Assembly: GCA_043826435.1 (NCBI GenBank)
Contig: JBDRQF010000053.1
Coordinates: 896 to 64,895, forward strand
Length of the DNA: 64,000 bases
Direction: 5' to 3'
Origin: Elusimicrobiota bacterium
GTDB taxonomy: Bacteria > Elusimicrobiota > Endomicrobiia > CG1-02-37-114 > JAHJSO01
A program made the position numbers and the translations under genes. Of the stretch, positions 18 through 36,857 are shown piece by piece. Under the pieces are notes generated by a model. The model was given only the letters and a program-made list of their open reading frames with translations. It was not told where the DNA came from and ran no database searches. Every line of letters starts with the position of its first letter. Positions within the stretch are counted from its first letter, which is position 1.

Positions 18-3000
18 GTGACCACAGGACAGTACTCAATTTCAGGTGCAGGTATTGGCTGGACGGACATTTTTAATATTCCTACCGGGACACAGGCGTA
101 CACATCCAACTGGGGTCTGCAGTCAGGTCACTGGGGACTGTTAACCCCAGGAACAAACTATGTTTCTGTCCGGGGTTTTGATAAAGTTAATCTATCAACC
201 AGTGTGCCAAATTTATTCTTGGTGCTCAAGGATACCGAGCCACCCGCCGGCATCACAAATCTAACATGTAATCCGGGAATATCAGGGGGAGAAATTTTAT
301 TGAGTTGGACTGCACCGCAGGATATTCCGAGCGGGGTTGAGAGTTATTTAGTAAAATATACTACGGGTCCGCAGTTTATTAACCGTACTGATTTTTTGGC
401 TCGTGGGACAACATTTTATCAGTCCTGGACACCCCTTTTGTCGTCCCAGACAGAAAACAAATCAGTTACTGGACTTATAGAGGGAAGCACATATTATATT
501 GGTATTTTAAGTAAAGACAGAACAACGCCGCCTACAAATTATTCTCCACTGCTATATGGTTCAACAAACCAGTCATCTGCACAAAGAGTTGCCCCGGCGC
601 GGATAACAACCCTTGCGGGCTCTTCTCCTGGTGACTTAAATCCTTCAGAGGTCCGACTGACATGGACTGCAGTTGGCGATGATGGGACAACGGGTAATGC
701 CTCAGGATATGTTGTTAAATATGCGACTTATGCCTTTACATCAGCGGAGTGGAATAGCTCTGTTGTATCAACTTACACGCAGTCATGGACTCCTCTCTCA
801 TCAGGCTCACAGGAGGAAAAAGTACTTTCAATGCCACAGTCAGGGACAACCTATTATTTTGCAATCAGGGTATTTGATGACGCATCTCCGGGAGAGAATT
901 ATTCACTAATGTCCAATACAGTTGCAGTCCAGTCACGACCAACAGGCCCTGCTGATGGCATGATCGTATTCCCAGACGGCACATCAGGAACGCCTAAATA
1001 CCGCAAATACACAGCAGCAAATAATTCTTGGGGAACGACATCAGATGCAGCAGGTAGTGCAGGAACAGTCAGATGGGCGGTACTTCGTGCCTGCCCCACC
1101 ATCAGAAACGAAAAACTTCTTGGTATTCAGTCAGGCGGTGGAACAGAACCCGATGGTCGGCTATATTTACAACGATGGAATGGCAGCACATGGGCGGGGA
1201 TGTCACCATTGACTCCTTCGTCACAAATAAATTCTACAAAATATGATTCCAGGTATCGGGCGTTTGATATTGCCTATGAGCAGACAAACGGTAGGGCGAT
1301 GATTGTGTTTTCAACAAACGGCGTGGGTGCGGTTCAATATCACCTGTGGTCATCCACTGCTGAAGCGTTTGTTATATACGGTGGAACGGTCCCACTTTCT
1401 GGCTCCAGCGGGGTTGTCCGTTGGGTCCGTTTAGAGCCGCAACCTGGGACAAACCGGATAATGTTGTCAGCACTTGATGCAAACAATGACCTTTACTCTA
1501 TCTGTTGGAATGGTTCGTCCTGGGTTGAGGGGAATATGAATACCGTCGGGACAGCGGTCAATATATATCAGTGTTATGATGTCGCCTGGGAATTGACCTC
1601 CGGGAGATGTTTGGTTCTCTGGGCTGAAGGAACTGCTACACAATATAAAATTTATACTCCCGGAACTGGTTGGGGAATTGCAACAGCAGGACCCAACCCC
1701 GCTGCTACTGTAAACTGGATAAAACTTGCCTCTGACAGGGTTAGCGGAACAAACCGTATAGGTGCCTCAATACTGGATGCCTCCGGGGCACCCAATGACT
1801 GGTGGGTGAGTATATGGGAAGGCAGTTCATGGATTAATACGACGGAAATATCCGCCAGTATGGATGCCGCAACCCAGCGACTTATGGACATTGCCTGGGA
1901 AAAAGACGGAAGGTGCATTGTCGTCGGAGTGCAGAATGCAGCACCTGCAAGTTCCCTGAGTTACGCTATATGGTCGGCAGGTTGGTCGGGTCTTACGACA
2001 CTCTCCGATGATTTGGGAAATTCCGTTGACCTGAGATGGTTACAACTTATTCCTGACCCGAACTCCAATAAAATGATTGTTGCAGGGACAAATGCAAACA
2101 CGTCAAACAATGCCTCTGTAAGGACGCAGAACTGGTCGGGGACATCCTGGTCGGGTGTGACCGCCCACACTGCTCTGGCTCCTTCCGGCACTTATGAGTG
2201 TGCAGTCATTACTCTGGATAGACACGATACAGTCGCACCTACTTTTACCAATAACCAATCAGGAGATGGGATATGGCGTTCAATAAATAATGGTGTGTAC
2301 GATGTTGACTTCTTTGACACGGGCGACTCTAAACTTTCAAAGGTCCAGACGCAGTTGGCATCAGGTTCAGGTGGCAGCGGCGTTTACAGGACATGGACGG
2401 ATGAAATTACCGGAATTAACGCGGAGTCCTATACAACTAACTGGGGTTTGACCGGGACTACATGGCAGCAGTTAAATCAGGGAAAAACATTCATATCGCT
2501 TAAAATTTTTGACGGTGTAGGAAACAATGTTTCACTCACAGATGCATTTTATGTTCAGAAGGATACACAGCCACCAACTATTACTAACAACATGGCCGGT
2601 GGACTTACAACATGGTTCAATAATAACCCGGGTGCTGTGATGGATATTGATTTTGCTGACCAGTCAGGGTTATCACTTCTTTCTACGGCACAATATTTAA
2701 TATATGCACAGTCAAATATGACGGGCTCACAGATTGTTGTCGGGACAATATTTAACTATGCACCTTCTCGTTTGGGATGGACTGATAACTTTGGTTTGAA
2801 TACAGGTCACTGGGAATTGTTATTGAATTCAACCAACTATGTTTCAGTTAGATGTTTTGATGTTGCCGGTTCAACACGGACAGCCATTGACGCATTTGTG
2901 GTCTTAAAGGATACTGTCCCGCCAGCAGGTATTACAGGGTTGTCTGCGCTTCCTGGTGGCTTTAAGGGAGCGATAGCCCTTACATGGACCGCTCCGTCGG

Positions 3001-6000
3001 ACACAGGTTCTGGAAAAGTGAGACAATATATGATAAAATATTCATCCACGGTTGAAATCTCAACGGATGGCCAGTTTGATTCAGCCATGACATGGCCAAA
3101 TAATATCATCCCGTCATCAGCAGGGACAACGGAGAATATAACACTCACAGGGCTTGACATAAACACCACATATTATTTCCGTCTAAAATCAAAGGATGTT
3201 TCAGAGCCAGTGTCTCTCTCATCATGGTCTGTAATGTCAAGTTCTGCCGGGTGCAGACCGCAGAGGGCGAATGTTTATATAAACGACATTGTCCCGTCTT
3301 TGTCGGCAGGTTCTGACTGGGTAGAACTCTTCAGCAACCTGTCGGCGAGTCAGACGCTCAATGGGTGGACGCTCGTGTATAACCAGGGCAGTATTGATTC
3401 GCCCGGCAGCGAATCAACCGTGTGGACCGGCGGGGCGGCTCACTACGTGTCTTCAGGCGGATTTTTTGTAATAGACGGGCTCTCACTTGATTCTTCCCAG
3501 AGTTATCATGTCCAACTAAGGGACAACCTGAACCGCCTGATAGACATTGTCCAGTGGCCCGCAGGGCTGGTTTCTGGCAATTCGTTTAGCCGTATTACAG
3601 ACGGAAATGACAATTATTTTGAAATTGACCCGACTCCAACAAAGAACTATGCCAACCACACAACTACGGGCGTTATAAAACTGAATGAGATTGACTATGT
3701 TTCTTCAGAAGAGTTTATTGAGATATACAACTCCTCGGATACTGTCCAGTCCATGACCGGCTGGTCTGTCAGGAATTACAACAATATCGTATTCAGGTGG
3801 ACAAGGCAGTGCTATCCACGAACATTTTCAGGGCTGTGTTGGACTTCCGTTGACAATACAGGCAAGACGTGGACGAACGCTTTTGGTAGCGGCGGGCTGG
3901 ACAGTGTGTCTGATTTTGTAGTCCTTGAAAATAATTCCGGGCAGGTTATTGACAGGACTACCTGGCAGTCAGGTTCAACTTACAGATACCGGAATTACAA
4001 GGGACAATTAGTTTCTTACGGCGCACCTGCGCCGGGTGGTGCGGTGTCAGGAGAGACCATAGGCAGACAACCGTCCGAGGGTGCGGATACGGACAATGAC
4101 TCAAACGACTGGATTGTGTTTTCTGCATCTTCCCTTGGCAGGAGGAACAACAATCCGACGCCAGCAACAACAAACAATTTGGGTTATCCTGCGTCTGATT
4201 CTTTCATCCCCCGAAGAGCAAAACTTGAACTAACCCTCGGGTCTGACTCATCCGGTGGCTGGACAGATACTTTATGGTTTGTCCGCACAGGGGGTTCAGC
4301 GGACAACAGGTCGCCACACATTTATCGTCTCACTGACCTGGGATTTGTTCTGTCTTCAATATCTGCACAGACAACTCGGCATGTCTGGATAAACAGACCC
4401 GACATTGATGGTTGGACACTTATTAACGGGACAATCTACAAATGTATTTTGAATACAGATACCGGTTCAGGTGCAACCCCTCAGATAATCCCGAGCAATA
4501 TCACTTATGATGCATCAGTCCACACTATTAGTGTTGTTGATTGTGCCAAACCACTGGTCAACAATGGTAAAAGGACAGCGATGCTCAGGGCTGATATAAA
4601 GTCAAACAGCCCGTCAGGCGCAAATGCAATCGGCGTTTCAATGGTGAAAGTAAAATTGACAGACGGCTCCGGCACAGCCCTTACAACCCTGCAGGCGCAG
4701 AGTATTTTTGGAAATATATACCTTATTGCAGACAGTTTAACGTCGGGCAGCACCGGGGTTTATCAGTATGAGATGGACACTGGCACTGCCGCCCATGCGA
4801 GTAGCAGTGAAATTTCACTGGATGGGGACGGCTACCAGACGATAAACTTATCCACCCCGAACACTGCTGGAAGGGTTTCAGCAGGGCAGTCAAAAATTTA
4901 TTTTATGGTCGTTGACCTTACGGATAATGCGGACTCGCAATCACCCAATAATTTCAGGGCGGGGATGGATGCTGATTCAGACACTACTCTTGTTGATATG
5001 CCATCCCTGGTCTATCAGGATATTCAGGGCACATCGCTTGTTACCTCTGTGTCGTCTTATGCTATTGCCCCTGCGTCCGCACCTGCCGGCACGTACTGGC
5101 CTTATGATTCAGGCACTATAACAACGATTGAATCAACCCCTGAAATTTATGATAAAATATACGTGGGCATGGGCAACGGCACTCTGATAGCATTGAGCGA
5201 TGCAGGTGAGTATAATTCTGATTATGCGGGGACAGGGGTTTTGCTCACCCCTTTAAGAAGTGATTACTGGACAGGCGAAAATAATTATGTATATTTTGTA
5301 AGTAAGTCGGGATATATATATAAGAATACGACGGCAAATAGTAATGTGTGGACAAGGACGCTTTCTGCAGACATAAGTTCGGATTTTTCCGCCTACACCT
5401 CGCTTTATGCAGGCACATCAGACGGCAGGTTTTACCGTCTGGATACCTCGGGCGCTGACGTATGGAGCCCCGCGCCGACGCTGCCCAGCGGGGCGATGGC
5501 CGGCTCACCAGTGATAGACGATGGTTTTTCGACGGGCATAGGCGAAAGTTCTGTGTGGGTGGGGACGAATTCCGGATGGGTTTACCGTTTGAAATTATTA
5601 GATGCAACGGTTCTTTCTTCAACCTATGTCGCCTCTGCAATAACGACTTCTATATGTTATGATTCGGGATATTATGCCCAGTCATTGAACAAAATGAATG
5701 TGTATTTTGGTACAGAAAATGGAAAGGTATATTGTAGATATGGTTTGACACTCAGCAGTGTGCCGGCTAACTGGCAGGACTGCAGTTTCAATTCAAAAAT
5801 AAACTCACTGGTCGGGCCGCAGATAGAAGGCACGGACAAGTATTTATATTTGGCGTGCGAAAACGGCATGGTGTATAAAATAAATGCGGAAACAGGTGCG
5901 ACGGTCTGGTCATACCAGGCGGGCGGTGCGGTCAGGGCAGGATTGTTCGCTGCTACCTCTATGGCAAGTCCAGATATTAATTCCCCATTTTACAACCTCA

Positions 6001-6185
6001 ATTACATATACTTCGGCTGTGAAGACGGCAACCTGTATGCTGTCCACAAAGACACGGCAGGGATGAAGCAGGGTTTCCCGGTGTCCGTCGGAGCGGAAAT
6101 AAAAGGGAGCATAAAATATGACACATCAAATCACAGGGTTTATTTCGGAGCGAATAATGGAAAGATATACTGCATCCAGCAGTAA
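18..6185 (+). CDS. Giant secreted surface protein, 5' end cut by the window edge. It has FN3-like repeats, four ~95-aa Trp-rich repeats, three ~120-aa repeats ending in 'KDTxPP', two lamin-tail domains (LTD) and a C-terminal PQQ-like beta-propeller. There is no C-terminal sorting domain.
   Basis: The frame is open from the window edge. The FN3 signature 'LSWTAP...YLVKY...TYY' recurs. The LTD motifs are 'VYINDIVPSL...WVELFSN...NGWTL' and 'IKLNEIDYVSSEEFIEIYN...MTGWSV'. The PQQ-like blades are 'VYFGTENGKVYC', 'YIYFGCEDGNLYAV' and 'RVYFGANNGKIYCI'. Confidence 0.8.
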   Translation: MTTGQYSISGAGIGWTDIFNIPTGTQAYTSNWGLQSGHWGLLTPGTNYVSVRGFDKVNLSTSVPNLFLVLKDTEPPAGITNLTCNPGISGGEILLSWTAPQDIPSGVESYLVKYTTGPQFINRTDFLARGTTFYQSWTPLLSSQTENKSVTGLIEGSTYYIGILSKDRTTPPTNYSPLLYGSTNQSSAQRVAPARITTLAGSSPGDLNPSEVRLTWTAVGDDGTTGNASGYVVKYATYAFTSAEWNSSVVSTYTQSWTPLSSGSQEEKVLSMPQSGTTYYFAIRVFDDASPGENYSLMSNTVAVQSRPTGPADGMIVFPDGTSGTPKYRKYTAANNSWGTTSDAAGSAGTVRWAVLRACPTIRNEKLLGIQSGGGTEPDGRLYLQRWNGSTWAGMSPLTPSSQINSTKYDSRYRAFDIAYEQTNGRAMIVFSTNGVGAVQYHLWSSTAEAFVIYGGTVPLSGSSGVVRWVRLEPQPGTNRIMLSALDANNDLYSICWNGSSWVEGNMNTVGTAVNIYQCYDVAWELTSGRCLVLWAEGTATQYKIYTPGTGWGIATAGPNPAATVNWIKLASDRVSGTNRIGASILDASGAPNDWWVSIWEGSSWINTTEISASMDAATQRLMDIAWEKDGRCIVVGVQNAAPASSLSYAIWSAGWSGLTTLSDDLGNSVDLRWLQLIPDPNSNKMIVAGTNANTSNNASVRTQNWSGTSWSGVTAHTALAPSGTYECAVITLDRHDTVAPTFTNNQSGDGIWRSINNGVYDVDFFDTGDSKLSKVQTQLASGSGGSGVYRTWTDEITGINAESYTTNWGLTGTTWQQLNQGKTFISLKIFDGVGNNVSLTDAFYVQKDTQPPTITNNMAGGLTTWFNNNPGAVMDIDFADQSGLSLLSTAQYLIYAQSNMTGSQIVVGTIFNYAPSRLGWTDNFGLNTGHWELLLNSTNYVSVRCFDVAGSTRTAIDAFVVLKDTVPPAGITGLSALPGGFKGAIALTWTAPSDTGSGKVRQYMIKYSSTVEISTDGQFDSAMTWPNNIIPSSAGTTENITLTGLDINTTYYFRLKSKDVSEPVSLSSWSVMSSSAGCRPQRANVYINDIVPSLSAGSDWVELFSNLSASQTLNGWTLVYNQGSIDSPGSESTVWTGGAAHYVSSGGFFVIDGLSLDSSQSYHVQLRDNLNRLIDIVQWPAGLVSGNSFSRITDGNDNYFEIDPTPTKNYANHTTTGVIKLNEIDYVSSEEFIEIYNSSDTVQSMTGWSVRNYNNIVFRWTRQCYPRTFSGLCWTSVDNTGKTWTNAFGSGGLDSVSDFVVLENNSGQVIDRTTWQSGSTYRYRNYKGQLVSYGAPAPGGAVSGETIGRQPSEGADTDNDSNDWIVFSASSLGRRNNNPTPATTNNLGYPASDSFIPRRAKLELTLGSDSSGGWTDTLWFVRTGGSADNRSPHIYRLTDLGFVLSSISAQTTRHVWINRPDIDGWTLINGTIYKCILNTDTGSGATPQIIPSNITYDASVHTISVVDCAKPLVNNGKRTAMLRADIKSNSPSGANAIGVSMVKVKLTDGSGTALTTLQAQSIFGNIYLIADSLTSGSTGVYQYEMDTGTAAHASSSEISLDGDGYQTINLSTPNTAGRVSAGQSKIYFMVVDLTDNADSQSPNNFRAGMDADSDTTLVDMPSLVYQDIQGTSLVTSVSSYAIAPASAPAGTYWPYDSGTITTIESTPEIYDKIYVGMGNGTLIALSDAGEYNSDYAGTGVLLTPLRSDYWTGENNYVYFVSKSGYIYKNTTANSNVWTRTLSADISSDFSAYTSLYAGTSDGRFYRLDTSGADVWSPAPTLPSGAMAGSPVIDDGFSTGIGESSVWVGTNSGWVYRLKLLDATVLSSTYVASAITTSICYDSGYYAQSLNKMNVYFGTENGKVYCRYGLTLSSVPANWQDCSFNSKINSLVGPQIEGTDKYLYLACENGMVYKINAETGATVWSYQAGGAVRAGLFAATSMASPDINSPFYNLNYIYFGCEDGNLYAVHKDTAGMKQGFPVSVGAEIKGSIKYDTSNHRVYFGANNGKIYCIQQ

Positions 6186-6194
6186 CACCAGCGG

Positions 6195-6393
6195 TGTCAT
6201 TGCGAGCCACCGTGTCATTGCGAGGGGCGAAGCCCCGAAGCAATCTCTTCGCCCACTCTGTCATTGCGAGGAGCGAAGCCCCGAAGCAATCCCCTTTTAC
6301 CGACGAGATTGCCACGCCCTTCGGGCTCGCAATGACAATCCAACGGGTATTCAAATGATGTGTCATTGCGAGGCGCAGCCGAAGCAATCCCTT
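6195..6393. repeat. Cluster of MITE-like palindromic repeat units (TGTCATTGCGAGG...GAAGCAATC) at the junction of the two giant ORFs. Three to four forward units and one inverted unit (6308-6337).
   Basis: Forward units begin near 6195, 6213, 6259 and 6361. 'GATTGCCACGCCCTTCGGGCTCGCAATGACA' at 6308-6338 is the reverse complement of the unit start. The same termini recur at 8.6 kb, 12.6 kb and 55.9 kb. Confidence 0.8.
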
Positions 6394-8634
6394 TTGCTAT
6401 GGGCTATCCTTATCTGTTTTGTCTCTGTTGATTTCACATCCGCCGCCTCATGGAAGGCGTTCAGAAGAGGCGCCGGCAGGGAGGGGTTTATCAACGAGCA
6501 GGCATACCCTTACGCAGCCAACCCGCCCGGTTGGAATTATAACGTATTTTCTCCGGTTTTGTCTTCCCCTGCCGTCAAGGACGGCGTAATATATTTTGGC
6601 TCAAGAGACGGTTCCGTATGGGCATTAAATGCCCTGACAGGGGAAGTCCTGTGGCAGTACTCAACAAGCGGTTGGGTTGATTCAACCCCTGTCGTTGGAG
6701 ATTCCTTCGTCTATGTCCTGTCCAGGGACGGTGTCGTTTATTGTTTCAAAAAGAAGTATGGGGAGGAGGAGGACATGCGTCCCGTCTGGGAATATAACAC
6801 GTCCGCCACGAACTGTTCTTCTCCCCTGTACACCGACGGAAAGATTATTTTTCTTACCGGCCCTGCATTTGCAGGGACCGAGCAGAAAGCATACCTGTAC
6901 TCGCTGGACGCCCTGACGGGCGCCCTGGTTGAAAAAAGGCAATTGGGCCAGTTCAGTTATTCATCCGTTGCAACCGATAAAGACCGTTTTTACTTCTGCA
7001 CCAGCGACGGTAACTTTAACTGTTATGAAGGGGGCAAACCGCTCTGGACGAAAAAGACAATGGGCGGGCTGTACTTCACTACGCTTGCGGTTAAAGACGG
7101 GAAGGTTTACGGTTACGCCGGTTCTATTGACAACAGGGTTTATTCAATTTCCGGGGACGGTTCCGTTCTGTGGTCATCCCCTGAATTGAGCAACGTGGCT
7201 ACCGACGGAACTTCAATATCCGTTGCCGGGGATAAGGTGGTCGTGAACGTTTACCCGTTCGGGAAGGGATGGAACGGTTCGCAGTACACCTCATGGGCAG
7301 GCCGTCTTTACTGCCTTGATTTGCAAAACGGGACGACGCTCTGGTTCAAGGAATACACACCTGCAATAGACCCGTCCAAATCATACGGGCTTACTTCTTC
7401 TCCTGCAATCGCCGGCAAGGTTGTTTATGTCGGCACGACCGAAGAAGTCCTGTATGCGCTTGACATTGACAGCGGGACGGTTATAGCGAATTACTCTCTG
7501 GACGGCGGGATTGTCGCTTCGCCGGCTGTTTCAAACGGATGGATTTATATCGGCACGCTTTCAGGCAAATTCTACGGCATTAAGGCGGAAAAGATAACGG
7601 CGATATCTTCACCTGACGACGGGGATTCGGTTGGCGGCAGGGTTCCGTTAAAGGGACATGTAGTCCAGAAGCCGGCTGAATACGAAAAATACCGGATTGA
7701 CTATTCCCTCAATGATAACCCCTCAGTTTACGGGACCATTGCAGAATCATCCGCCACACCGTCAATAGAAGGGGACACACTCGCAACATGGGACGTTACG
7801 GGACTGCCCCAGGGCGAATACACAGTCAAACTTTATACCCTTGGTTCAACCGGAGGCGTTTTAGGAAGTGCTGCTGTGCAGTATTTTGTCAACCAGTCAA
7901 CGAGCGTTTTTGTCGGCAGGCAGGGCGGCACACTGCAGTTCTTCAGTGACGGCACTGAGATAGTAATCCCAGAGGGTGCGGTTGAGCAGACCGTTGAGAT
8001 TTCAGCCAGGAAATACACCGACCAGGAAGATTGGACGGGCAAAAACACGGGTATTCCGTCGGACGTCCGGGCCGCGGGAGACGCCAGAGAGTTTACCGTA
8101 TCGCCGTTGGTGGAGTTTAGCAAGAATGTCACGATTAAACTCCCTTATGAACTTGGTAAAAGCGGCATTTCACTGTCGGCAAAAGAGAAAAATCTCCGGC
8201 TCTTCTGGTGGGATGCAGACAAAAACAAATGGCGTATGGTCAATAACTCAACCCCGCATTCCGACGACACCCCGAAAAGGGTGTGGGCTGACATTCCGCA
8301 TTTTTCAACGTACAGGGTAGGCGAGTTTATTTCATCCGATACATTGCTGTTGGATGTTTATACCTACCCGAACCCCGCTCGTCTGACGGACAAACTTTAT
8401 TTTAAATTTTCATTGGGGGCTGAGAAAACGGACGTCATCATAGACGTTTACAACGTTGCAGGCGAATTAGTGGCGCACCTTGTGCGTCCGGGCCAGGACG
8501 ACGATGCGGGCCAGGTAAGGCAGTTTGAATGGGACATATCAAACATTGCAAGCGGTATGTATGTTTACAGGGTTGAGGCGAACTCATCCGGCAGGAAACA
8601 GTCGGTTACCAAAAAACTTGCAATAATACATTAG
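6355..8634 (+). CDS. Secreted PQQ-like beta-propeller protein with a conserved C-terminal cassette (two Ig-like domains plus a T9SS-type C-terminal sorting domain). It may be the split-off C-terminal half of the upstream giant gene.
   Basis: ATG at 6355 lies inside the repeat element and gives a signal-peptide-like N-terminus (MMCHCEAQPKQSLLLWAILICFVSVDFTSAAS). The ORF-track frame 6118-6354 is only the repeat read through. The PQQ blades include 'VIYFGSRDGSVWALNALTGEVLWQY'. The C-terminus is 'YTYPNPARLTDKLYF...VYNVAGELVA...ASGMYVYRVEA...KKLAIIH'. Confidence 0.7.
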   Translation: MMCHCEAQPKQSLLLWAILICFVSVDFTSAASWKAFRRGAGREGFINEQAYPYAANPPGWNYNVFSPVLSSPAVKDGVIYFGSRDGSVWALNALTGEVLWQYSTSGWVDSTPVVGDSFVYVLSRDGVVYCFKKKYGEEEDMRPVWEYNTSATNCSSPLYTDGKIIFLTGPAFAGTEQKAYLYSLDALTGALVEKRQLGQFSYSSVATDKDRFYFCTSDGNFNCYEGGKPLWTKKTMGGLYFTTLAVKDGKVYGYAGSIDNRVYSISGDGSVLWSSPELSNVATDGTSISVAGDKVVVNVYPFGKGWNGSQYTSWAGRLYCLDLQNGTTLWFKEYTPAIDPSKSYGLTSSPAIAGKVVYVGTTEEVLYALDIDSGTVIANYSLDGGIVASPAVSNGWIYIGTLSGKFYGIKAEKITAISSPDDGDSVGGRVPLKGHVVQKPAEYEKYRIDYSLNDNPSVYGTIAESSATPSIEGDTLATWDVTGLPQGEYTVKLYTLGSTGGVLGSAAVQYFVNQSTSVFVGRQGGTLQFFSDGTEIVIPEGAVEQTVEISARKYTDQEDWTGKNTGIPSDVRAAGDAREFTVSPLVEFSKNVTIKLPYELGKSGISLSAKEKNLRLFWWDADKNKWRMVNNSTPHSDDTPKRVWADIPHFSTYRVGEFISSDTLLLDVYTYPNPARLTDKLYFKFSLGAEKTDVIIDVYNVAGELVAHLVRPGQDDDAGQVRQFEWDISNIASGMYVYRVEANSSGRKQSVTKKLAIIH

Positions 8635-10413: not shown

Positions 10414-11593
10414 ATGAATAAACTAAAACTTGGAAAATTTGAAACAAAAAATATTGAATACAAAGAGGCAAAAAGTCGGTTGCCTGAAAACACTTATAAG
10501 ACGATTTCATCTTTTGCAAACACAAAAGGTGGAGTAATCTATTTGGGTATAAAACAGGATGGAGATAGGATAATCAGGCAGGGAGTGGAAAATCCGCAAA
10601 AGATTGTTGATGATTTGGTTTCAACGGTCAGTCAGAAGTATAATTTTTGTCCAGTCATTAAACCCGTCATAGAAAAGACAGGGATATTCAGAGGTTTTAT
10701 CAGGAGCGAGAAGGTTCACTTGATGCGCATACATTACCATGGCAGGACTGCTTCTTTTTGGTAAAACTACGGAAATTAAAAGGCATGTCCCTCATTTCAG
10801 GATTGATGTAATCAGGATAAGGGGAATAGAATGGGGCAAGGATAAAGACCCTTTCTTGTCTGCCGACTTATTCGGCAATCTTTTAAATATCAGGATACAG
10901 GTCATTGATATATTTGAGAGATTTTTCCTGACGCCGTTTAAGCTCGGTAAAGACCTGACCCGTATAGACGATGACCCGTTCAAGAATGCGTTGAGAGAAG
11001 CTCTGAGCAATCTCCTGATGCACCAGAACTATTTTCATTATTCTCCTTCACAAATCAGGATTTATAATGACAGAATTGAATTTTATAATCCCGGGTATTC
11101 ACTTAAAGACCCTGATAATTTTGCAACTCCCGGCTCTGAATTGCGTAATAGCCTGATTACTCCTGTGTTTTACGATATGGGTTGGGCTGAATCAAAAGGT
11201 ACAGGTTTTCGGACGCAGATTTTAGAATTGAAAAAATACGGATTACCGGAAGCCAAATGGGAAAGTGATGAGAAAAATGATAAGTTTACAATAGTATTTC
11301 CTTACCCCGAGGAACAGGTTGGTCAACGAGTCGCCCCACAAGTCACTGACCAAGTCACCGCACAAGTTACCGCACAAGTGGAAAAGAGAGACAGGATAGC
11401 TAAAATATTAAAATTTTGCGAGCAGCCGCAAACATTAAAAGAAATGATGCAATTCATAAATCTGAAACACAGGGTATACTTTTTAAAAGAAATATTAACA
11501 CCTTTATTAGAGAAAAAATATTTAAAGCGGACAATACCCGATAAACCAAAAAGCAGGTTTCAGAAATACATAACGAGTAAAAGGATTAAATGA
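10414..11593 (+). pseudogene. AlbA_2 (Schlafen-like) + HATPase_c_4 + wHTH putative transcriptional regulator ('RecG-C-terminal-like/Fic-associated' family), split by a frameshift near 10740-10765
   Basis: ORF 10414-10764 carries the AlbA_2 motif 'ISSFANTKGGVIYLGI'. It overlaps ORF 10739-11593 in another frame, which begins with the family-typical 'AGLLLFGK', carries an HATPase_c_4-like core, and has '[14 protein letters not shown]' linker repeats plus a wHTH tail. Confidence 0.65.
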
Positions 11594-11661
11594 AAGACCA
11601 CTCCCGGAAATTCTTGAAGATATCAAAACGCTTGATGAAAAATCAAAAGAACTGGATAAAG

Positions 11662-11693
11662 AATTAAAAAAGATATTCAGCCAGATAAAATTT
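11662..11693. repeat. Right copy of the 32-bp direct repeat
   Basis: Identical to 10366-10397. Confidence 0.9.
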
Positions 11694-11757
11694 TAATGTG
11701 TTTTGTAGGGCAGAGATTTAGCCCTGCTAAGACAGATGTTAAAAACAGGAGAAAAAT

Positions 11758-12576: not shown

Positions 12577-12624
12577 GTAATTTGCGATACAGTGTTGCGT
12601 AATTCTGAAAATCGCAGACGGAAA

Positions 12625-12660
12625 AGATGTCATTGCGAGGAATGTAATGACGAAGCAGTC
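12625..12660. repeat. Degenerate partial copy of the GTCATTGCGAGG repeat unit
   Basis: 'GTCATTGCGAGGAATGTAATGACGAAGCA' is seen directly in the sequence. Confidence 0.5.
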
Positions 12661-13664: not shown

Positions 13665-13680
13665 CATTCCGAACAATGTG

Positions 13681-18417: not shown

Positions 18418-18421
18418 AGTC

Positions 18422-20347: not shown

Positions 20348-23300
20348 ATGAAAAGAAAACAGATATTCTTAAAGTGTATGTTGTTGTGTTTATTCACAAT
20401 TGGACAAGGAACCTCAACAGCATCGATAATTTCTGGAACAGGTACCCATTTTGAGATATCTATTGAGGATTCGCAAACACTAACTTTGGATAGTAGTCAA
20501 GATATCAATGTTCTGTTAGAATATACACCCGCTTGTGAGATTAGTATCTTGATAGGAAGTACCACACTTACTTCAACGCATCTTACATTGGGTGGACTTA
20601 CAGCCAATACGACATATTACAAATATCTAAATGGGGTGCTTTCAGAGCATTTCTTATCTCAACAGGATGGGAAATACGTCTTTTTGCAGGACCTTTCTGA
20701 ACCGTGCCACATCTTCTTTAGTATGGACAAGTTAACTCTATCTTATATTACACCAGATGGAAATGTTACACCAGCCACGGTGCCTATTAAAAGAGTTACT
20801 GATGAGACATATGTTCTTATTGGTGATATTGAGGGTTCCATAGTAGTTCAAAAGGATGGTATAACCATAGACCAGAATGGTTACGCTATTCGTGGTCAGA
20901 GTTCTTTCGGATATTATATAGTTTTCGGAAGAGATATAACCATAGAAAATGTAAATATTCAAGGATACACCTACGGTGTTTTCGCAGCATATTCTTATAG
21001 AATTTCTGTAATCAAAAGCACTATTACCTTGAATACAAATGGACTTTTCTTTCACTCGCAAGGCGGCGCTTTGATTTCTCAAAATTTAATATCTTCAAAT
21101 ACTATAGGAATTCACTTCTGGTCGCCAGGGCATGAAAATACAATAGAGGGTAATCATATTTGCAATAATGACATAGGTATACGAATAGCATCAGATATAT
21201 ACATTAGCCGCTACAACACTGTTAGAGGAAACACAATAACACAGAATACCTACGGAATAAATATAAGTTATTGTGAGGAATTTGAAGCAATACACAACAA
21301 CTTTATCAATAATACAACTCAAGTAGAAATAGGTCCATGGTGTAGGGGTCTTCGGTGGGACGATGGTTATCCATATGGTGGTAATTATTGGAGTGACTAC
21401 GTCGGAATTGACAATTACAGTGGTTCCAATCAAGACCAACCGAGGAGTGATTGGATTGGCGATACTCCATATATTATTAATGCGTCTTATAAAGACAATT
21501 ATCCATTCATGATGAAAGATGGCTGGCGTCTTGATACAACCCCACCAGTAAGTAAGTTAGAAGTTGGAAATCCAAAGTATGAATATGAAGGTAAAATCTA
21601 TGTATCTACGATAACAGAATTTACAATAACTGCTGACGATGGTGAAGGACGTGGTGTAAAACTGACCAAATACCGTATTGACGATCAACAACCGTGGATA
21701 CTTTATAAAGGCAATTTTACATTAGCCGGTATATCCGGTATTTCTATAATTCCAGGAGGATGCGTGGGATACTGGAAATTTGATGAAGGTGAAGGGGCAA
21801 CCGTAATTGATTCTGTTGGTACAAATGACGGGACAATCTGTAGCGCAACATGGACAGCAGGAAAAATTGGTAATGCATTAAGTTTTGATGGTGTAGATGA
21901 TTATGTGAGAGTTCCAAATAGTGATAGTTTTAATTTACATAAAAACAGTTTAACACTTGAGGCTTGGGTTTATCCAAAAGCATATACCGGATACTGGGAG
22001 GGAGGGATAATTGGTAGAGTTATAGATCCATACGGTTGGAGATTAAGTGTAAGAAGCACGCGATATTCTCCGGGAACAATTTGTGGGGGTGTACAGAATC
22101 TTGTTTGGATAGATTCTGTAGAGAAAGCACCGTTAAATATTTGGACACACATTGTTATGGTGTATGATTTTGATAAAGATATAGAACAACTTTGGGTAAA
22201 TGGAGTAAAAGATAATGAGGTGAGTTCTGTAAGGGATAAAGAAATTTACGCTAATTTCAATATTAATAGTCCTCTTGGGATTGGACTTTATTATTATCAG
22301 GGAAATCCAAATATGGGTGCGTGTTTTAACGGTCTTATCGATGAAGTAGCCATCTACAACCGGGCATTAACTCCTGAGGAAATATACTCAAGATATACAG
22401 TCACAATAGTCCCAATAACAGAAGGACATCACACGTTTTCATATTACAGTACTGACGTTGTAGATAACAAAGAGGTAGTGAAAAGTACAAACATTGTTGT
22501 CGATGTAACCTCACCAGATACACCACAAATGAACCTTGAGCCAGAATTCACTAGTTCTCTACAGAATACCGTTTCCTGGTTGGAATCAACTGATACCTTA
22601 AGTGGAGTTTATGGCTATTTAGTTGAATGTTCTACAATTGAGGATTTCACTACTATTTTTTCATCATCCAGCTGGATTAAAATTACAAGTTATACTTTCG
22701 CAAATCTTTCAGATGGTATAAAATACTTTTATCGTGTGAAAGCAAAAGATAATGTTGGGAATGAAACTATTTGGTCAAATGTTGTATGGTCAATACAAGA
22801 TAATACAGCTGCAACTTTTGAAGTAATACCCTCAACTGGTGGAATATCTGTTACTGCCGCAGGCACTATTAACATTGATATAATTGCCAGCGAACCTTTA
22901 GTTGCTGCGCCAACTGTTTATGTAACCCAGAGTGGTCAGGAATTTGCTACTGATATTACAGCAACATTAACCACTACTGATAATATTTCCTGGACAGGAA
23001 CTTATGATGTAACAAATAATTACGATGGTATAGCGATTATTGAAGTAACTGGTAAAGACCGGGTGGGCTATACCAGTAAAGGACGAGGTGGTTTTGAAGT
23101 AGCAATTGGTCCTACAGGTCAAAATATTATCATTAGTAATGTTTCTGATTCACCAGATCCTTTTTCGCCGAGGACAGGTGAATCAACAACAATCTATTAT
23201 GAACTTTCTACAAGTGGCGGACAAATTAGTATTACCACAACAACAATAACTTTTGAAAATGCTCAAGGAGTTATTGTTGACAGCGTAACTATTTTTAACC

Positions 23301-24904
23301 AAACAACGGGGGCACAACAAACTTTATGGGGCGGACTTGATACTAATAATTTTCCATTTCCCGATAGTAAATATACCTATCGTATAAATGTTTCTGGCTT
23401 CAAACAGCAAGGCCCAAACCAAGTACCAGTAAGTGCAATTGAAAAAGTTGGAGAAATAACGCTTCTAAGTTATGCAGAGTTAGACACAACAGGATGTACA
23501 ATATCTAATCCATCTAATGCAGAGATTACAATTACCCCGGTAAGTGCAGTTTTGCCCTCAGCATTTGGAATACAATCAGGTAATGTTGGCTCAATTTATG
23601 AAATAGAACCAACCAATACAACATTTTCACCAGCAGCGATTTTGATTTTACGCTATACTGATGACGAATTAGCTGAAAAAGGAATTGATGAAAACACATT
23701 AGATATATACAAATTTATAGACGGTGTATGGGTTGCTCAAGGTGCAACATTAGACACAGTAAATAATACTTTAACCCTTGCTGTTACTTCTTTATCTTAT
23801 TTTGTTATACTAACCTCGGAATTTGTTGCTACTCCTGTTGCAGAACTTGACACAACACCACCAACCTTTGTGACTCATCTGACCATTGACCCCGAAGTAA
23901 CAGATAATTTAACAATAACTATAACTGCTTCTGAACTACTACTATTACCACCTAAAGTAACGGTTTATCCACATGGTAATAGTCCTCAAAAAGAGAGTGT
24001 AAAGGTAAATGTGAGTTTAGTGGAAGGTAGTGAGACAGTTTATGCAGGAACATTCAGTAGCATTACTGGTTTTGGTGACATAGATAGAATAGTTGTAGTC
24101 GGGAGAGATTTAGCAGGGAATGAAGGAGTAAGCGACGGAACATATACAAAGAATGTAATTTCTTCTGCTGGTGGAGTAATTTCTGATGCCAGAGGAAAAG
24201 GTGTAACAGTAGATATTCCAGAAGGAGCGATAACCGGAGAAATAATTGTCACTATCAGGGCTGAAGATAAAAGTAATTCAGTTCTGGAAAACAAGAAAAA
24301 GGCATCTGCTCAAAAACAGGAACTTAAACTTATTGGAGTAGGATACAAATTTGGTCCTGATGGGACACAGTTTTCTAAACCTGTGAATATTAGTATTCCT
24401 TATAGTAATGAAGACATTGATGGTATAGATGAAAAAACATTGAAAATGGCTTATTGGAATGTATCTATTAGTAAATGGGAATTACTTAAAACTTCACAAT
24501 CCAGGACAGAAGAAAATATAGTAACAGCAGAAGTTACTCATTTTTCGCTCTATAAAATTGTTGCTGGAGTAGAAAAAGTTTTAGGGCCACAACCAGATGC
24601 AACATTCAAAGAAGGAGAAATATATGCATATCCAAACCCAGCAAAGGGTAGCAAAAACCCAACGATACATGTAGAATGTGGTATTGCCGACGGGGTAGAG
24701 ATAAGATTTTACAATCTTGCTGCCGAACTTGTGAGTGCCGTGGAATTAGCAGGAACTGACTGGAAAATCAGAGACAACGAATACTATTATGAATACACAT
24801 GGGATGTATCAAATGTAGCGAGCGGTGTGTATGTGTATTTAGTGCAAGCAAAGAAAGACGATAAGGTAATAAGAACAGTAAAAAAAGTTGCAGTAATAAA
24901 ATAG
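20348..24904 (+). CDS. Giant secreted surface protein (1518 aa): signal peptide, right-handed parallel beta-helix repeats, a LamG-like domain, FN3/Ig-like domains, and a conserved C-terminal cassette ending in a T9SS-type sorting domain
   Basis: Signal peptide 'MKRKQIFLKCMLLCLFTIGQG'. Beta-helix repeats 'NTIEGNHICNNDIGIRIA...RGNTITQNTYGINISY...HNNFINNT'. LamG motif 'GYWKFDEGEGATVIDSVGTNDGTI...ALSFDGVDDYVRVPNS...LTLEAWVYP'. C-terminus 'YAYPNPAKGSKNPTIHV...FYNLAAELV...ASGVYVYLVQA...KKVAVIK'. Confidence 0.75.
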   Translation: MKRKQIFLKCMLLCLFTIGQGTSTASIISGTGTHFEISIEDSQTLTLDSSQDINVLLEYTPACEISILIGSTTLTSTHLTLGGLTANTTYYKYLNGVLSEHFLSQQDGKYVFLQDLSEPCHIFFSMDKLTLSYITPDGNVTPATVPIKRVTDETYVLIGDIEGSIVVQKDGITIDQNGYAIRGQSSFGYYIVFGRDITIENVNIQGYTYGVFAAYSYRISVIKSTITLNTNGLFFHSQGGALISQNLISSNTIGIHFWSPGHENTIEGNHICNNDIGIRIASDIYISRYNTVRGNTITQNTYGINISYCEEFEAIHNNFINNTTQVEIGPWCRGLRWDDGYPYGGNYWSDYVGIDNYSGSNQDQPRSDWIGDTPYIINASYKDNYPFMMKDGWRLDTTPPVSKLEVGNPKYEYEGKIYVSTITEFTITADDGEGRGVKLTKYRIDDQQPWILYKGNFTLAGISGISIIPGGCVGYWKFDEGEGATVIDSVGTNDGTICSATWTAGKIGNALSFDGVDDYVRVPNSDSFNLHKNSLTLEAWVYPKAYTGYWEGGIIGRVIDPYGWRLSVRSTRYSPGTICGGVQNLVWIDSVEKAPLNIWTHIVMVYDFDKDIEQLWVNGVKDNEVSSVRDKEIYANFNINSPLGIGLYYYQGNPNMGACFNGLIDEVAIYNRALTPEEIYSRYTVTIVPITEGHHTFSYYSTDVVDNKEVVKSTNIVVDVTSPDTPQMNLEPEFTSSLQNTVSWLESTDTLSGVYGYLVECSTIEDFTTIFSSSSWIKITSYTFANLSDGIKYFYRVKAKDNVGNETIWSNVVWSIQDNTAATFEVIPSTGGISVTAAGTINIDIIASEPLVAAPTVYVTQSGQEFATDITATLTTTDNISWTGTYDVTNNYDGIAIIEVTGKDRVGYTSKGRGGFEVAIGPTGQNIIISNVSDSPDPFSPRTGESTTIYYELSTSGGQISITTTTITFENAQGVIVDSVTIFNQTTGAQQTLWGGLDTNNFPFPDSKYTYRINVSGFKQQGPNQVPVSAIEKVGEITLLSYAELDTTGCTISNPSNAEITITPVSAVLPSAFGIQSGNVGSIYEIEPTNTTFSPAAILILRYTDDELAEKGIDENTLDIYKFIDGVWVAQGATLDTVNNTLTLAVTSLSYFVILTSEFVATPVAELDTTPPTFVTHLTIDPEVTDNLTITITASELLLLPPKVTVYPHGNSPQKESVKVNVSLVEGSETVYAGTFSSITGFGDIDRIVVVGRDLAGNEGVSDGTYTKNVISSAGGVISDARGKGVTVDIPEGAITGEIIVTIRAEDKSNSVLENKKKASAQKQELKLIGVGYKFGPDGTQFSKPVNISIPYSNEDIDGIDEKTLKMAYWNVSISKWELLKTSQSRTEENIVTAEVTHFSLYKIVAGVEKVLGPQPDATFKEGEIYAYPNPAKGSKNPTIHVECGIADGVEIRFYNLAAELVSAVELAGTDWKIRDNEYYYEYTWDVSNVASGVYVYLVQAKKDDKVIRTVKKVAVIK

Positions 24905-33581: not shown

Positions 33582-36500
33582 TTATTTTATCACTGCAACT
33601 TTATTCAGTGATTTTATTACTTTGTCATCTTTCTGTGCACGGACTAGATATATGAATACACCTGATGCTACATCGGGAGTATCCCAGGTGTATTCATACG
33701 CATATTTGTTGTCTATGATTTTCCAGTCATTACCAGAAATTTCAACTGAATGCACCAACTCTGCTGCTATGTTGTATATTTGTATTTCAATTTTATCTGC
33801 AGTACCTACTTCTATGTGTATCGTTGGGTTCTTACCTTCTTTTGCTGGATTTGGAAACGCATATACTTCACCAAGTTTGAATGTTGGGTCTGCAGTAATT
33901 TTTGGTTCTGGTTGTTCATCTGTTGACGGTGGTTCAGAAATAGCCACACCAGGAATGGGTGACATAATCTGATATAGTGAGAAATGGTTTGTCTCACAGG
34001 AAAGAGTATTTTCATCTGGATTGACTTTTGAACTTTCTATAGGTTCCCACAAACTTTTTTCTTCATTCCAGTAATATATTTTTAAGTCAGTCTCATCAAT
34101 ATATTTCACATTTTCATCAGTATAGTTCATTACAATTGTTATTGGTTTAGCAAATTGATTTGTGTCAGCATTAAATTCATAGCCTTTACCAACAGGTCTA
34201 ATTTTTATTTTCTCTGCTGATAATTTCTTACCATAACTAACCTGAACTGACATTGCAAGTATTTCTGTTTCTTTTCCTAACGCTCCTTTCGGTATAATCA
34301 ACTTTACACCGTCAGAACTTGTCAATTCGTCACCTTCAGATGAAACTTTTGTCATTATACTCGGTGAAATTATTTTGATTGTATCACTACCTATAAATTT
34401 TATCGGTTTGGATTCTATGTCAATTTCACCTTCAACTGTAATTTTTATTTCATCAGCAGGTATTACTACTTTTTGTAGTGCCTCTCTATCAAACTTCACC
34501 ATAAGGTCAGGTATACCGTCGTTGTCATGGTCGCCAATTCCTTTTGGTTTTGTCTCGGCATAAATTGGCTCTATTTCCATATTACCAATTTTTGTAATCT
34601 TTAATGTATTAATATTAACATCTTTCAGGTTATATTCAGTCGGTAATTCAATATATGCCGTAACCCATTTACCTTTTGATTTCAAGTTTAATGTATCAGG
34701 GTCAATATCAACAATAGCAACAACATGCGGTTCTTTACTAAATAGCGCATATAAAGATACTTGATATATCTCTGCTACTATACGATTGTTTGCTAAGTCA
34801 ACAAATTGATTTATTCCTGTAGTAACCCAAGTTGTTCCATCATACCGACGAATTTCTAAATTATTCCCGTCAAGTACAGGATCGTAAAGAAAAACTAAAA
34901 TTGCAGGTGCTAGAAAACTGCCCTGCGTTACATTTATATCATAAATAGCACTTTGTAAGAAAAGTCCTTTGTCGTTTATAGCATATGCTGTAGTAACCGG
35001 GATAGAAACTGTAGTAATACTTACATCAAAAGTAGGGTCGTGTCGTAAAATAATGTCTAAATAACTTGTACTAATTGTATTTGATTTAACTAATTCTATT
35101 GTTCCACTTTTGGGCTCTGAAGTAATCCATGGTACTGTAGGGGCTGGTTTATATCTTACCCAGGTATCATATTTATACACAGCAAAATTATAGTTGTCTG
35201 TATACCAGGAAACATTTTGAGTTAGACCTTCTGTAAACTTACCAAGGTCGCCAAAATCAATTGTTGTTATTGGGAGGATACTTGTTGAAGTTATTACTAT
35301 CTTAAACTGAAGTTCTACATTATCACCAGGAGCACATCCAGTAAAACTTATTGTTGATGTACTACCAATCACTATCGGGTCGGGGAAATCAATTAAATCA
35401 ACTACAATAGGTGCTGCTGTATCTACCTTTATAGCAAATGCACTTATCTTTTCTTGGCTTTCTTGTAGTGAAGGATTACTTGCTTTAACCTTGAGATAAT
35501 AGTTCCCGGATTTGATTTCTCCTGTTTGTTTCTTACCATCCCAGACAAATGAATGTAATCCACCAGATTGTGAAATTCTAGTTGCAAGTGTTCGTGCAAC
35601 TGTGCTTTTGTCTGATTCAAGTATTTCAACAGTTACTTCTTCTGCGGTTTCACTTAATATATATGAAACCGTACTTGTTTCACTTTCAAAAGGATTAAAT
35701 CTACTTGGTGTTGCTGATAAATTACTTATCGTTATTGATTTAACATTTATTACAAATTTGTCATTAGTATCAGGTAACATTACATTACCAACTAAATCAC
35801 TCGCATTCATAACAGTTATCTTTGCTATACCATCACCAGTATTCGGGTCAATTGCTACATCACTTGCAACTGTATATGTATCACTTGATTTATATGTAGT
35901 TGACCAAACAGGATTTGTATTTGCATATAAAGGTGGTACAACACCTTCCGGGTCAAAATATACCGTCGGTGGCTTTGTCAAATCCATCGATTCAGAGAAA
36001 ATTATCTTAAATATAGGTAATGTTCCAACTGCAGTAACTGTGCTTGGTGTAACTGTAATTGAAGTTGCTACTGGTGGAACACCATCCTTTGCTTGAATTG
36101 ATGAACCGATGACAGCATAATTTCCTGCTAGATCTGCAATTGAACTTACAATTATTACCCAGGGGTTAGCATCTGTTGGCATTACTGATGTTAAAGTTAT
36201 TTCAACTATTGTGTCTGTAATCAAACTGCCTGATTGCACAGTAAAACTTTCAACATTAAAGTCATTGCCACTTACTGTAGCAGCATCTAATTTCTCACTG
36301 AAAATTACATGAATTGTTGACGTACTTTTTGTTACTGCTGAAATTAATGATGGCGGAGTTTTATCACAAATTGCCCATGCTTGATTATTACCTACAGTTT
36401 GAATATTACCATCTTTATCCACTGGTTGAATAGTGTAGTAATAAACTACTCCGTCGATCAAACCTATACCTGAATCAATATATTTTGTAACTGTTGTTGT

Positions 36501-36857
36501 GGCAATTTCTATTCCTAATACAGGGTAAGTTGCTCTGAAAATTTTATAGTACCCTATACCTGTATTATCGTCAGTAACTTCTGACCAAGACAGTTCAATG
36601 TTACCTTGTATTCGGGCAGTTGCTGTTAAATCAACAACTGCGAATGGTGGTATGGTGTCTACATATTGGATATAGTCATATTCAATTATGGCTGAACGAA
36701 GCAACAGTTTATTACAAGTTATATCTTTATAGTCATATTCCAGTGTAGTTGAATGCAGTGTCAATGGTTGCGCCCCCGAATAAGTAATACAAAAAACAAG
36801 ATACAGAAGAAAAAAACAAAATGTGATTTTCTGCCAAATCCTTGACCTGAAGAACAT
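33582..36857 (-). CDS. Giant secreted surface protein (1091 aa) with FN3/Ig-like repeats and the conserved C-terminal cassette ending in a T9SS-type sorting domain
   Basis: N-terminal signal anchor. FN3-like 'IELSWSEV...YYKIFR...YYYTI'. The C-terminal 250 aa are homologous to the other two cargos, ending 'VYAFPNPAKEGKNPTIHI...IYNIAAELV...ASGVFIYLVRA...NKVAVIK'. Confidence 0.75.
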   Translation of the reverse strand: MFFRSRIWQKITFCFFLLYLVFCITYSGAQPLTLHSTTLEYDYKDITCNKLLLRSAIIEYDYIQYVDTIPPFAVVDLTATARIQGNIELSWSEVTDDNTGIGYYKIFRATYPVLGIEIATTTVTKYIDSGIGLIDGVVYYYTIQPVDKDGNIQTVGNNQAWAICDKTPPSLISAVTKSTSTIHVIFSEKLDAATVSGNDFNVESFTVQSGSLITDTIVEITLTSVMPTDANPWVIIVSSIADLAGNYAVIGSSIQAKDGVPPVATSITVTPSTVTAVGTLPIFKIIFSESMDLTKPPTVYFDPEGVVPPLYANTNPVWSTTYKSSDTYTVASDVAIDPNTGDGIAKITVMNASDLVGNVMLPDTNDKFVINVKSITISNLSATPSRFNPFESETSTVSYILSETAEEVTVEILESDKSTVARTLATRISQSGGLHSFVWDGKKQTGEIKSGNYYLKVKASNPSLQESQEKISAFAIKVDTAAPIVVDLIDFPDPIVIGSTSTISFTGCAPGDNVELQFKIVITSTSILPITTIDFGDLGKFTEGLTQNVSWYTDNYNFAVYKYDTWVRYKPAPTVPWITSEPKSGTIELVKSNTISTSYLDIILRHDPTFDVSITTVSIPVTTAYAINDKGLFLQSAIYDINVTQGSFLAPAILVFLYDPVLDGNNLEIRRYDGTTWVTTGINQFVDLANNRIVAEIYQVSLYALFSKEPHVVAIVDIDPDTLNLKSKGKWVTAYIELPTEYNLKDVNINTLKITKIGNMEIEPIYAETKPKGIGDHDNDGIPDLMVKFDREALQKVVIPADEIKITVEGEIDIESKPIKFIGSDTIKIISPSIMTKVSSEGDELTSSDGVKLIIPKGALGKETEILAMSVQVSYGKKLSAEKIKIRPVGKGYEFNADTNQFAKPITIVMNYTDENVKYIDETDLKIYYWNEEKSLWEPIESSKVNPDENTLSCETNHFSLYQIMSPIPGVAISEPPSTDEQPEPKITADPTFKLGEVYAFPNPAKEGKNPTIHIEVGTADKIEIQIYNIAAELVHSVEISGNDWKIIDNKYAYEYTWDTPDVASGVFIYLVRAQKDDKVIKSLNKVAVIK

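Follow-up and report, generated by a model that had tools for sequence, protein, structure and literature searches.

Three cargo genes and the barrel genes that follow them

A stretch of 64,000 nucleotides (nt) from an Elusimicrobiota bacterium (GenBank assembly GCA_043826435.1, contig JBDRQF010000053.1, positions 896 to 64,895; hereafter the window) includes three cargo genes, P1, P2 and P3, whose products end in a homologous segment of about 250 amino acids, the cassette. Table 1 shows the positions of these genes, of the parts of their cassettes and of the barrel genes located downstream. P1 consists of a signal-peptide-like N-terminus, a PQQ/BamB-type beta-propeller, a stretch of about 100 amino acids with no family assigned, a ZU5-like domain and a sorting tail resembling those of type IX secretion system (T9SS) cargo. 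P2 is composed, in this order, of a signal peptide, a NosD beta-helix, LamG, fn3/Ig domains, FlgD_ig, a degenerate ZU5-like domain, an Ig-like spacer, the ZU5-like domain and the sorting tail. P3 includes, in this order, a signal peptide, fn3/Ig arrays, FlgD_ig, a weak degenerate ZU5-like domain, a spacer, the ZU5-like domain and the sorting tail. The signal-peptide-like character of the three N-termini was judged by eye. The passengers were identified with Pfam (PQQ/BamB-type propeller in P1; NosD beta-helix, LamG, fn3 and FlgD_ig in P2; FlgD_ig and Ig arrays in P3), which also matched the end of all three proteins to Por_Secre_tail. In each protein the ZU5-like domain sits 100-130 amino acids from the C-terminus, between the passenger and the tail. 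A profile search of all six-frame open reading frames (ORFs) of the window found neither cassette domain outside P1-P3.

Table 1. Cargo genes, cassette parts and barrel genes in the window (positions count from the first letter of the window).
Feature	Position	Strand	Remarks
P1 cargo gene	6355..8634	+	Listed ORF 6118..8634; likely true start 6355
P2 cargo gene	20348..24904	+	
P3 cargo gene	33582..36857	-	
P1 ZU5/GAIN-B-like (MAIN-type) domain	7897..8340	+	Profile independent E value (iE) 3.6e-39; Pfam ZU5 E 2.6e-3
P2 ZU5/GAIN-B-like (MAIN-type) domain	24140..24577	+	Copy used for the structure model
P3 ZU5/GAIN-B-like (MAIN-type) domain	33942..34361	-	Profile iE 2.4e-47
P1 HFS motif, amino acids 728-730	8299..8307	+	Predicted cut F729/S730; C-terminal fragment 109 amino acids
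P2 HFS motif, amino acids 1398-1400	24539..24547	+	Predicted cut F1399/S1400; C-terminal fragment 119 amino acids
P3 HFS motif, amino acids 958-960	33978..33986	-	Predicted cut F959/S960; C-terminal fragment 132 amino acids
P2 second, degenerate ZU5-like domain	23510..23818	+	SLS replaces HFS; iE 1.5e-11
P3 weak degenerate ZU5-like domain	34725..35003	-	VSL replaces HFS; iE 0.019; aligns to the P2 degenerate copy
P1 type-A-like T9SS C-terminal sorting domain	8347..8631	+	PF18962 39.9 bits (cutoff 27); TIGR04183 29.9 bits (cutoff 23)
P2 sorting tail	24608..24901	+	PF18962 20.7 bits (cutoff 27); TIGR04183 18.8 bits (cutoff 23); PorZ-model C-terminus match
P3 sorting tail	33585..33878	-	PF18962 19.2 bits and CHU_C 23.9 bits, both below cutoff; TIGR04183 18.9 bits; PorZ C-terminus match
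Barrel gene after P1	8731..10371	+	546 amino acids; gap 96 bp; NF033709 152 bits
Barrel gene after P2	24931..25902	+	323 amino acids; gap 26 bp; NF033709 188 bits; Pfam PorV, UPF0164
Barrel gene after P3	32574..33545	-	323 amino acids; gap 36 bp; NF033709 200 bits; 73% identical to the P2 barrel

The sequence-only reading of this DNA had delimited the cassette and proposed that its three copies are homologous, which the comparison bore out. A three-way alignment of the last 270 amino acids of P1-P3 contained 50 invariant columns, and the entire P2 and P3 cassettes shared 46% identity (E 7e-80), the upper end of the 25-46% amino acid identity found among the three copies. The similarity extends beyond the sorting domain of about 80 amino acids: after the tails were removed, BLASTP comparison of P1 with P2 and with P3 gave E values of 1e-10 and 3e-11, respectively. 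The quoted motifs, IPEGA/IPKGA, W..W and HFS(L/T)Y(K/Q/R)(I/V), were confirmed as well. The proposed division of the cassette into three domains was not. The cassette has two, because the whole region before the tail has a fold of the ZU5/Nup98-C/GAIN-B type, in which the 'IPEGA' part forms the N-terminal half, and the 'W..W..HFS' part the C-terminal half, of one beta-sandwich. The remaining domain, the tail, matches the C-termini of the PorZ and PorU models.

The conserved genetic unit includes the PorV/PorQ-family barrel gene just downstream of each cargo gene. All three barrels are members of this family (Pfam PorV and UPF0164; NF033709 above its cutoff of 90 bits). They are not PorV or PorQ proper, as the scores with the specific T9SS barrel models were 90-136 bits for PorQ, the best of them (cutoff 220), 43-90 for PorV (cutoff 250) and 72-101 for PorV2 (cutoff 325). 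The P1 barrel shares 36% identity with the other two over the barrel region. It also carries a C-terminal extension of about 190 amino acids that is absent from the other two and matches no family.

A metagenome scan with the window barrels yielded 79 loci, and 62 distinct barrel genes in them were preceded by 700 bp or more of sequence. A tail-ending ORF was found directly upstream, on the same strand, in 48 of the 62. The ZU5-like domain was present in 15 of these 48 pairs, and every ORF with a ZU5-like domain in these loci (16/16) also ended in the tail. The other 33 pairs lack the domain, so it is the tail, rather than the ZU5-like domain, that is partnered with the barrel. In six loci (L117, L134, L138, L142, L148 and L151), two or three such pairs were observed in a span of 17 kb; therefore, cargo-barrel pairs form multigene families within genomes. 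One of the loci in Elusimicrobia metagenome-assembled genomes (MAGs) that were matched by the NfnB-like gene of the window (see below) holds the same pair of tail ORF and barrel gene. Two close barrel proteins were poor patterns for a scan of GTDB genomes, which returned no relatives.

The region upstream of P1 has features of its own. A cluster of short repeats at 6190-6400 (GTCATTGCGAGG.GCGAAGCCCCGAAGCAATC, in 2-4 copies, plus a 14-nt inverted repeat) is placed between the ORF at 18..6185 and P1, and it overlaps the likely P1 start. When translated, it produces a spurious N-terminus of 79 amino acids (CHCEERS.., ARNDN), which makes up amino acids 1-79 of the P1 ORF as listed from 6118; the database copy of P1 (P0002) has 759 amino acids. 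No further copies of the repeats were found in the rest of the window. The ORF at 18-6185 (+) codes for 2,055 amino acids with a lamin-tail domain, fn3 domains and a terminal PQQ-like propeller. It ends just before the repeat cluster and has neither the ZU5-like domain nor the sorting tail. The idea that this ORF and P1 are one gene split by insertion of the repeats was disfavoured: the two are in different frames, the P1 propeller is complete, and the terminal propeller of the upstream ORF is only distantly similar to it. Pfam found no toxin domain in P1-P3, and a reading of the three proteins as polymorphic toxins was dropped for this reason.

The ZU5-like domain and its family

The beta-sandwich of about 140 amino acids that precedes the tail belongs, as judged from structural modeling, to the ZU5/Nup98-C/GAIN-B autoproteolytic superfamily, and within it probably to the type known as microbial GAIN-like autoproteolysis-inducing (MAIN) domains, of which Bacillus subtilis YfkN is an example (Brogan and Rudner, bioRxiv May 2026, doi 10.64898/2026.05.12.724683). 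MAIN domains are cut between F and S of the tripeptide HFS, as determined by Edman sequencing and S-to-A mutants, and the fragments stay associated (doi 10.64898/2026.05.12.724683). The supplementary tables of the same work label the domain as Pfam ZU5 and as ECOD 'ZU5/Nup98-C/GAIN-B'. In the window, Pfam ZU5 (PF00791) gave 26.4 bits for P2 (cutoff 21) and 18.4 bits, below the cutoff, for P1, while P3 was absent from the matches; the similarity is confined to about 80 profile positions at the N-terminal end. A profile built from the three domain copies matched the ZU5 domains of ankyrin and ZO-1 in the PDB with E values of about 1e-3.

The assignment was made because of the structural matches of the model to ZU5, GAIN, FIIND and Nup98 domains. 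A first model of the whole cassette, made from three sequences, had a predicted local distance difference test (pLDDT) value of 65 and was superseded by an AlphaFold2 model of the domain with 43 family domains as the alignment, which reached a pLDDT of 94.4 and showed twelve strands and two helices. The structural match scores of this model were 14.8 for ankyrin ZU5, 12.2 for UNC5B, 11.5 for CD97 GAIN, 9.1 for CELSR1 GAIN, 8.7 for CARD8 FIIND, 8.5 for BAI3 GAIN, 8.2 for NLRP1 FIIND and 5.2 for Nup98. Foldseek gave E values of about 1e-7 for ZU5 and about 1e-3 for GAIN domains. The tripeptide HFS, which occurs exactly once in each of P1, P2 and P3, occupies model residues 134-136, where the chain turns from the penultimate strand (127-134) into the last one (137-143).

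The size of the family was determined by an exhaustive HMMER profile search of 1.84 billion cluster representatives, which found 9,701 representatives at E <= 1e-3 and 851 at E <= 1e-10. A word-indexed protein search was too insensitive for this family; it gave no match for the three-domain alignment and one weak match for the P2 cassette. Among the 150 best representatives, H-x-S/T is kept in 140 of the 149 copies of the domain closest to the anchor (94%; HFS itself in 103) and in 60 of the 94 copies located upstream (64%). The fold of an autoproteolytic superfamily together with the retained HFS cleavage motif indicates that the ZU5-like domain most likely provides release rather than sorting, and the domains of P1-P3 probably cut themselves. 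The function first assigned to the cassette, secretion and anchoring, leaves out this probable role in release as well as the downstream barrel gene.

About 86 of the 150 best representatives end with a tail of the window type 100-120 amino acids after the domain. Proteins with the ZU5-like domain and the tail range from 254 to 4,994 amino acids, and a Pfam scan of 46 of them identified 56 passenger families, including PQQ propeller (12), NHL (9), Big_13 (7), NosD/beta-helix (4), fn3 (4) and Kelch (4) as well as Ig-like domains and others. A search of metagenomes for the cassette on other passengers, proposed in the sequence-only reading, thus found many. Because the same unit ends proteins of such varied size with so many kinds of passengers, the sequences support at large scale that the ZU5-like domain and the sorting tail constitute a portable C-terminal module. 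The idea of a portable cassette holds at this scale and fails as a description of independent recombination events in the window, as discussed below. The same profile also finds proteins that end in SLH domains, in a transmembrane helix with a basic tail, in PGF-CTERM-like signals or in dockerins; therefore, the window domain is of the same broad family as MAIN, with another anchor.

Proposed anchoring and release, and descent of the three copies

The homology, the fold, the place of the motif and its conservation, the portability of the unit and the pairing of the genes are observed; from them we infer cleavage, continued association of the fragments, a mode of anchoring and a trigger of release. 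We hypothesized that P1-P3 are surface proteins held by the tail and its cognate barrel through a self-cut, non-covalent, releasable link, and we consider this reading fairly probable. The cargo would be exported by Sec, and the tail would carry it onto or through the outer membrane, and it would be held there. The holder would most likely be the tail bound to its own barrel, in the way that PorZ is held by PorQ; alternatively, the cargo would be attached to a glycan after removal of the tail. The ZU5-like domain would cut itself between F and S via an N-O acyl shift. Both fragments would remain together because the last strand, which would then be part of the anchored fragment of about 110-130 amino acids, would stay in the sandwich. 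A propeller, beta-helix or Ig-array passenger would in this way be displayed via a non-covalent link, and pulling the fragments apart would release it.

Several observations weigh against this reading. The tails of P2 and P3 score under the curated cutoffs for type A C-terminal domains (CTDs), and are nevertheless clearly homologous to the P1 tail. No T9SS core component (SprA/Sov, PorK/L/M/N, PorU/Z) was found in the 64-kb window, and the host phylum, Elusimicrobiota, is outside the phyla with an established T9SS. The absence of the ZU5-like domain from 33 of the 48 tail-barrel pairs counts on the same side. The likeness of P1-P3 to YfkN and other MAIN proteins was drawn from fold, motif and architecture. 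Finally, the closest solved structures are the ZU5 domains of ankyrin and ZO-1. These animal domains are not autoproteolytic.

The alternative that survives best, which we regard as unlikely, is anchoring by the classical T9SS route. The adjacent PorV-like barrel would only shuttle the cargo, and a sortase of the PorU type would remove the tail and attach the cargo to a glycan on the surface, for whose synthesis the surrounding polysaccharide cluster would be responsible, with the ZU5-like domain still acting as a breakable link. This route is consistent with the P1 tail, which is above the type A CTD cutoffs, and with the embedding of the three pairs in a cluster of Wza/Wzc/Wzx/Wzy and glycosyltransferase genes; type A cargo is normally attached to anionic lipopolysaccharide (A-LPS; PMC10202324). 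However, the window has one dedicated barrel per cargo and several pairs on one contig, unlike the single PorV shuttle of Bacteroidota, and neither PorU nor PorZ was seen in it. The layout rather resembles those of type B CTDs with PorP/SprF and of PorZ with PorQ, where the tail is retained, and within the duplicated unit conservation is highest in the tail and the barrel.

It is less likely still that the ZU5-like domain does not cleave and serves, like those of ankyrin and ZO-1, as a structural spacer or binding module between the passenger and the tail. Besides the non-cleaving nature of the nearest solved structures, such a role would fit the degenerate copies without HFS present in P2 and P3 and the 36% of upstream family copies that lack H-x-S/T. 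The copies closest to the anchor argue otherwise, since 94% of them keep H-x-S/T, mostly as the exact HFS of the MAIN cleavage site, and the motif occupies the expected turn of the model.

We give very little credit to the possibility that the entire 250 amino acids are one extended secretion signal that the barrel or translocon would not recognize without its ZU5-like part. Type B CTDs do need more than 200 residues (PMC10202324), and the P3 tail has a weak match to CHU_C, which is of this type. Nonetheless, the tails by themselves are type-A-like, the domain family also occurs with SLH, transmembrane, PGF-CTERM-like and dockerin ends, and 33 of the 48 tails paired with barrels do without it.

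The three copies differ in their history. The passengers had been described as unrelated, and this stands for P1 compared with P2 and P3 (E > 0.5). It does not stand for P2 compared with P3: amino acids 689-1168 of P2 are collinear with amino acids 31-719 of P3 in three weak matches (E 5e-8, 3e-7 and 6e-6), the last of which is the second, degenerate ZU5-like copy. P2 has an additional N-terminal head of beta-helix and LamG relative to P3. At the nucleotide level, the P2 and P3 units are about 45% identical in the passenger, 53-61% in the ZU5-like domain, about 70% in the tail and about 75% in the downstream barrel gene, with identity increasing along the unit. Because the passengers are collinear and the barrel genes are 73% identical, P2 and P3 are, by this comparison, old diverged paralogues of one pair of cargo and barrel genes, not independent fusions. 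Alignment at the nucleotide level, which the sequence-only reading had suggested, showed no trace of recent recombination, the longest exact word common to the copies being 14 nt, and the G+C content of each cassette matches that of its own gene (0.50 in P1, 0.35 in P2 and P3). The presence of three copies in 30 kb, two of them inverted, and of mobile-element genes at about 10.7-16.5 kb might suggest that a mobile cassette has recently recombined or undergone gene conversion in this genome. This can be practically dismissed in view of these short words, the low amino acid identity, the G+C content and a P2-P3 homology that also takes in passenger sequence before the cassette and the barrel gene after it.

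A surface-polysaccharide cluster, with genes for Wza, Wzc, a flippase, Wzy-like proteins and numerous glycosyltransferases, takes up most of the window. Its G+C content varies from 0.32 to 0.51, and Rfam had no match in it. The paralogous units at 20348-25902 (+) and 32574-36857 (-) are inverted and flank Wza/Wzc export genes, an NfnAB-like oxidoreductase pair with a G+C content of 0.51 and an HNH endonuclease gene. The NfnB-like gene, a transferable one, is closest to those of Elusimicrobiota MAGs (59-61% identity) and then of Omnitrophota in a scan of GTDB genomes. Directly upstream of P2, at 16576-20275 (+), there are two tandem genes for membrane glycosyltransferases with PMT_2 (ArnT/protein-mannosyltransferase-like) and TPR domains, which might glycosylate surface proteins. 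The P2 locus was also found on an independent 13-kb ENA contig, with the PMT_2/TPR genes and P2 in the same order. The region at 10739-16500 resembles a mobile-element or defence island, with genes for a Fic-like/RecG-C-like protein, a BRO-N protein, nucleotidyltransferases, an rve integrase fragment and a HEPN/nucleotidyltransferase pair, and coincides with a drop in G+C content from about 0.47 to about 0.34. Inside the polysaccharide cluster, at 50267-52758 (+), lie adjacent TIGR03546 and TIGR03545 (AsmA/DUF748-like) genes, a conserved pair.

Comparison with known systems

The pairing of cargo and barrel genes (48/62 loci) might shed light on the way in which PorV-like barrels keep hold of tails, and it is evidence for T9SS-like tails and barrels in lineages not counted among the T9SS phyla. 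In annotation, the probable role of the ZU5-like domain sets 'release' apart from 'sorting' in a region usually labelled as a sorting domain alone. A broader proposal, which we advance as a possibility rather than an expectation, is that outside Bacteroidota, probably in Elusimicrobiota-like diderms, cargo-barrel pairs are self-contained units of anchoring and possibly of export, in which the tail stays on the barrel instead of being cut off by a sortase and the ZU5/GAIN-like domain makes the pair a force-releasable tether. If so, these pairs would correspond, at the outer membrane, to MAIN proteins anchored by sortase or SLH domains and might be an ancestor-like, simple form of T9SS cargo handling.

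In Porphyromonas gingivalis, the tails of PorZ and PorU are not removed, and these cargos remain attached to PorQ and PorV, respectively; type B cargo genes cluster with the genes of their cognate PorP/SprF barrels (PMC10202324). P1-P3 resemble all of these in having a beta-sandwich tail at the C-terminus and a barrel partner in the outer membrane, and resemble type B cargo in the adjacency of the cargo and barrel genes. However, the barrels in the window are of the PorV/PorQ family and not PorP/SprF. They differ from the PorV and PorQ systems too, as they score below the equivalog cutoffs, occur as many pairs per contig in a host outside Bacteroidota, and are accompanied by no T9SS core seen in the 64 kb.

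Zhang et al. (2012, PMC3482391) predicted that large surface proteins of bacteria that carry modules for adhesion and enzymes generally undergo autoprocessing by ZU5 domains. The polymorphic toxins of that study differ from P1-P3 in that their ZU5 domain is N-terminal and tied to the TcdB/TcaC route, and a link of ZU5 to a T9SS tail was not described there. The eukaryotic relatives with ZU5, FIIND, GAIN or Nup98-C domains (PIDD, UNC5, NLRP1, CARD8, adhesion GPCRs and Nup98) are intracellular or receptor-linked signalling proteins, unlike P1-P3; the window domains have no GAIN-A helices, GPS cysteines or UPA domain and share 10-21% identity with them. As in type V autotransporters, an outer-membrane barrel would display a passenger whose release would be autoproteolytic and which, as sometimes occurs there, would stay associated non-covalently, but the barrel is here a separate gene of another family and the cleavage domain differs in fold and chemistry.

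P1-P3 also resemble the MAIN proteins, which consist of a signal peptide, an adhesin or enzyme, the MAIN domain and a surface anchor, are found mostly in Bacillota, and are anchored mostly by sortase signals, wall-binding domains or SLH domains (doi 10.64898/2026.05.12.724683). The text of that work does not mention type IX secretion and suggests that MAIN may be a 'Gram-positive counterpart' of autotransporters. Releasable tethers of this type were shown only in 2026 and have been discussed mainly as a Gram-positive device, whereas the window pairs the module with a putative outer-membrane anchoring system, and the profile search indicates that the wiring of a ZU5-like domain to a T9SS-type tail is common in metagenomes. 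P1-P3 offer testable substrates with exact predicted sites (F729/S730, F1399/S1400 and F959/S960). They share with MAIN proteins the sandwich of the ZU5/GAIN-B type, the HFS before the last strand, the order of the parts, the diversity of passengers and the large size, and differ from them in using, in a diderm, a T9SS-type tail and a dedicated outer-membrane barrel gene. This kind of releasable surface anchor has up to now been known chiefly from Gram-positive bacteria, and the unit found in P1-P3 seems to be its counterpart at the outer membrane.

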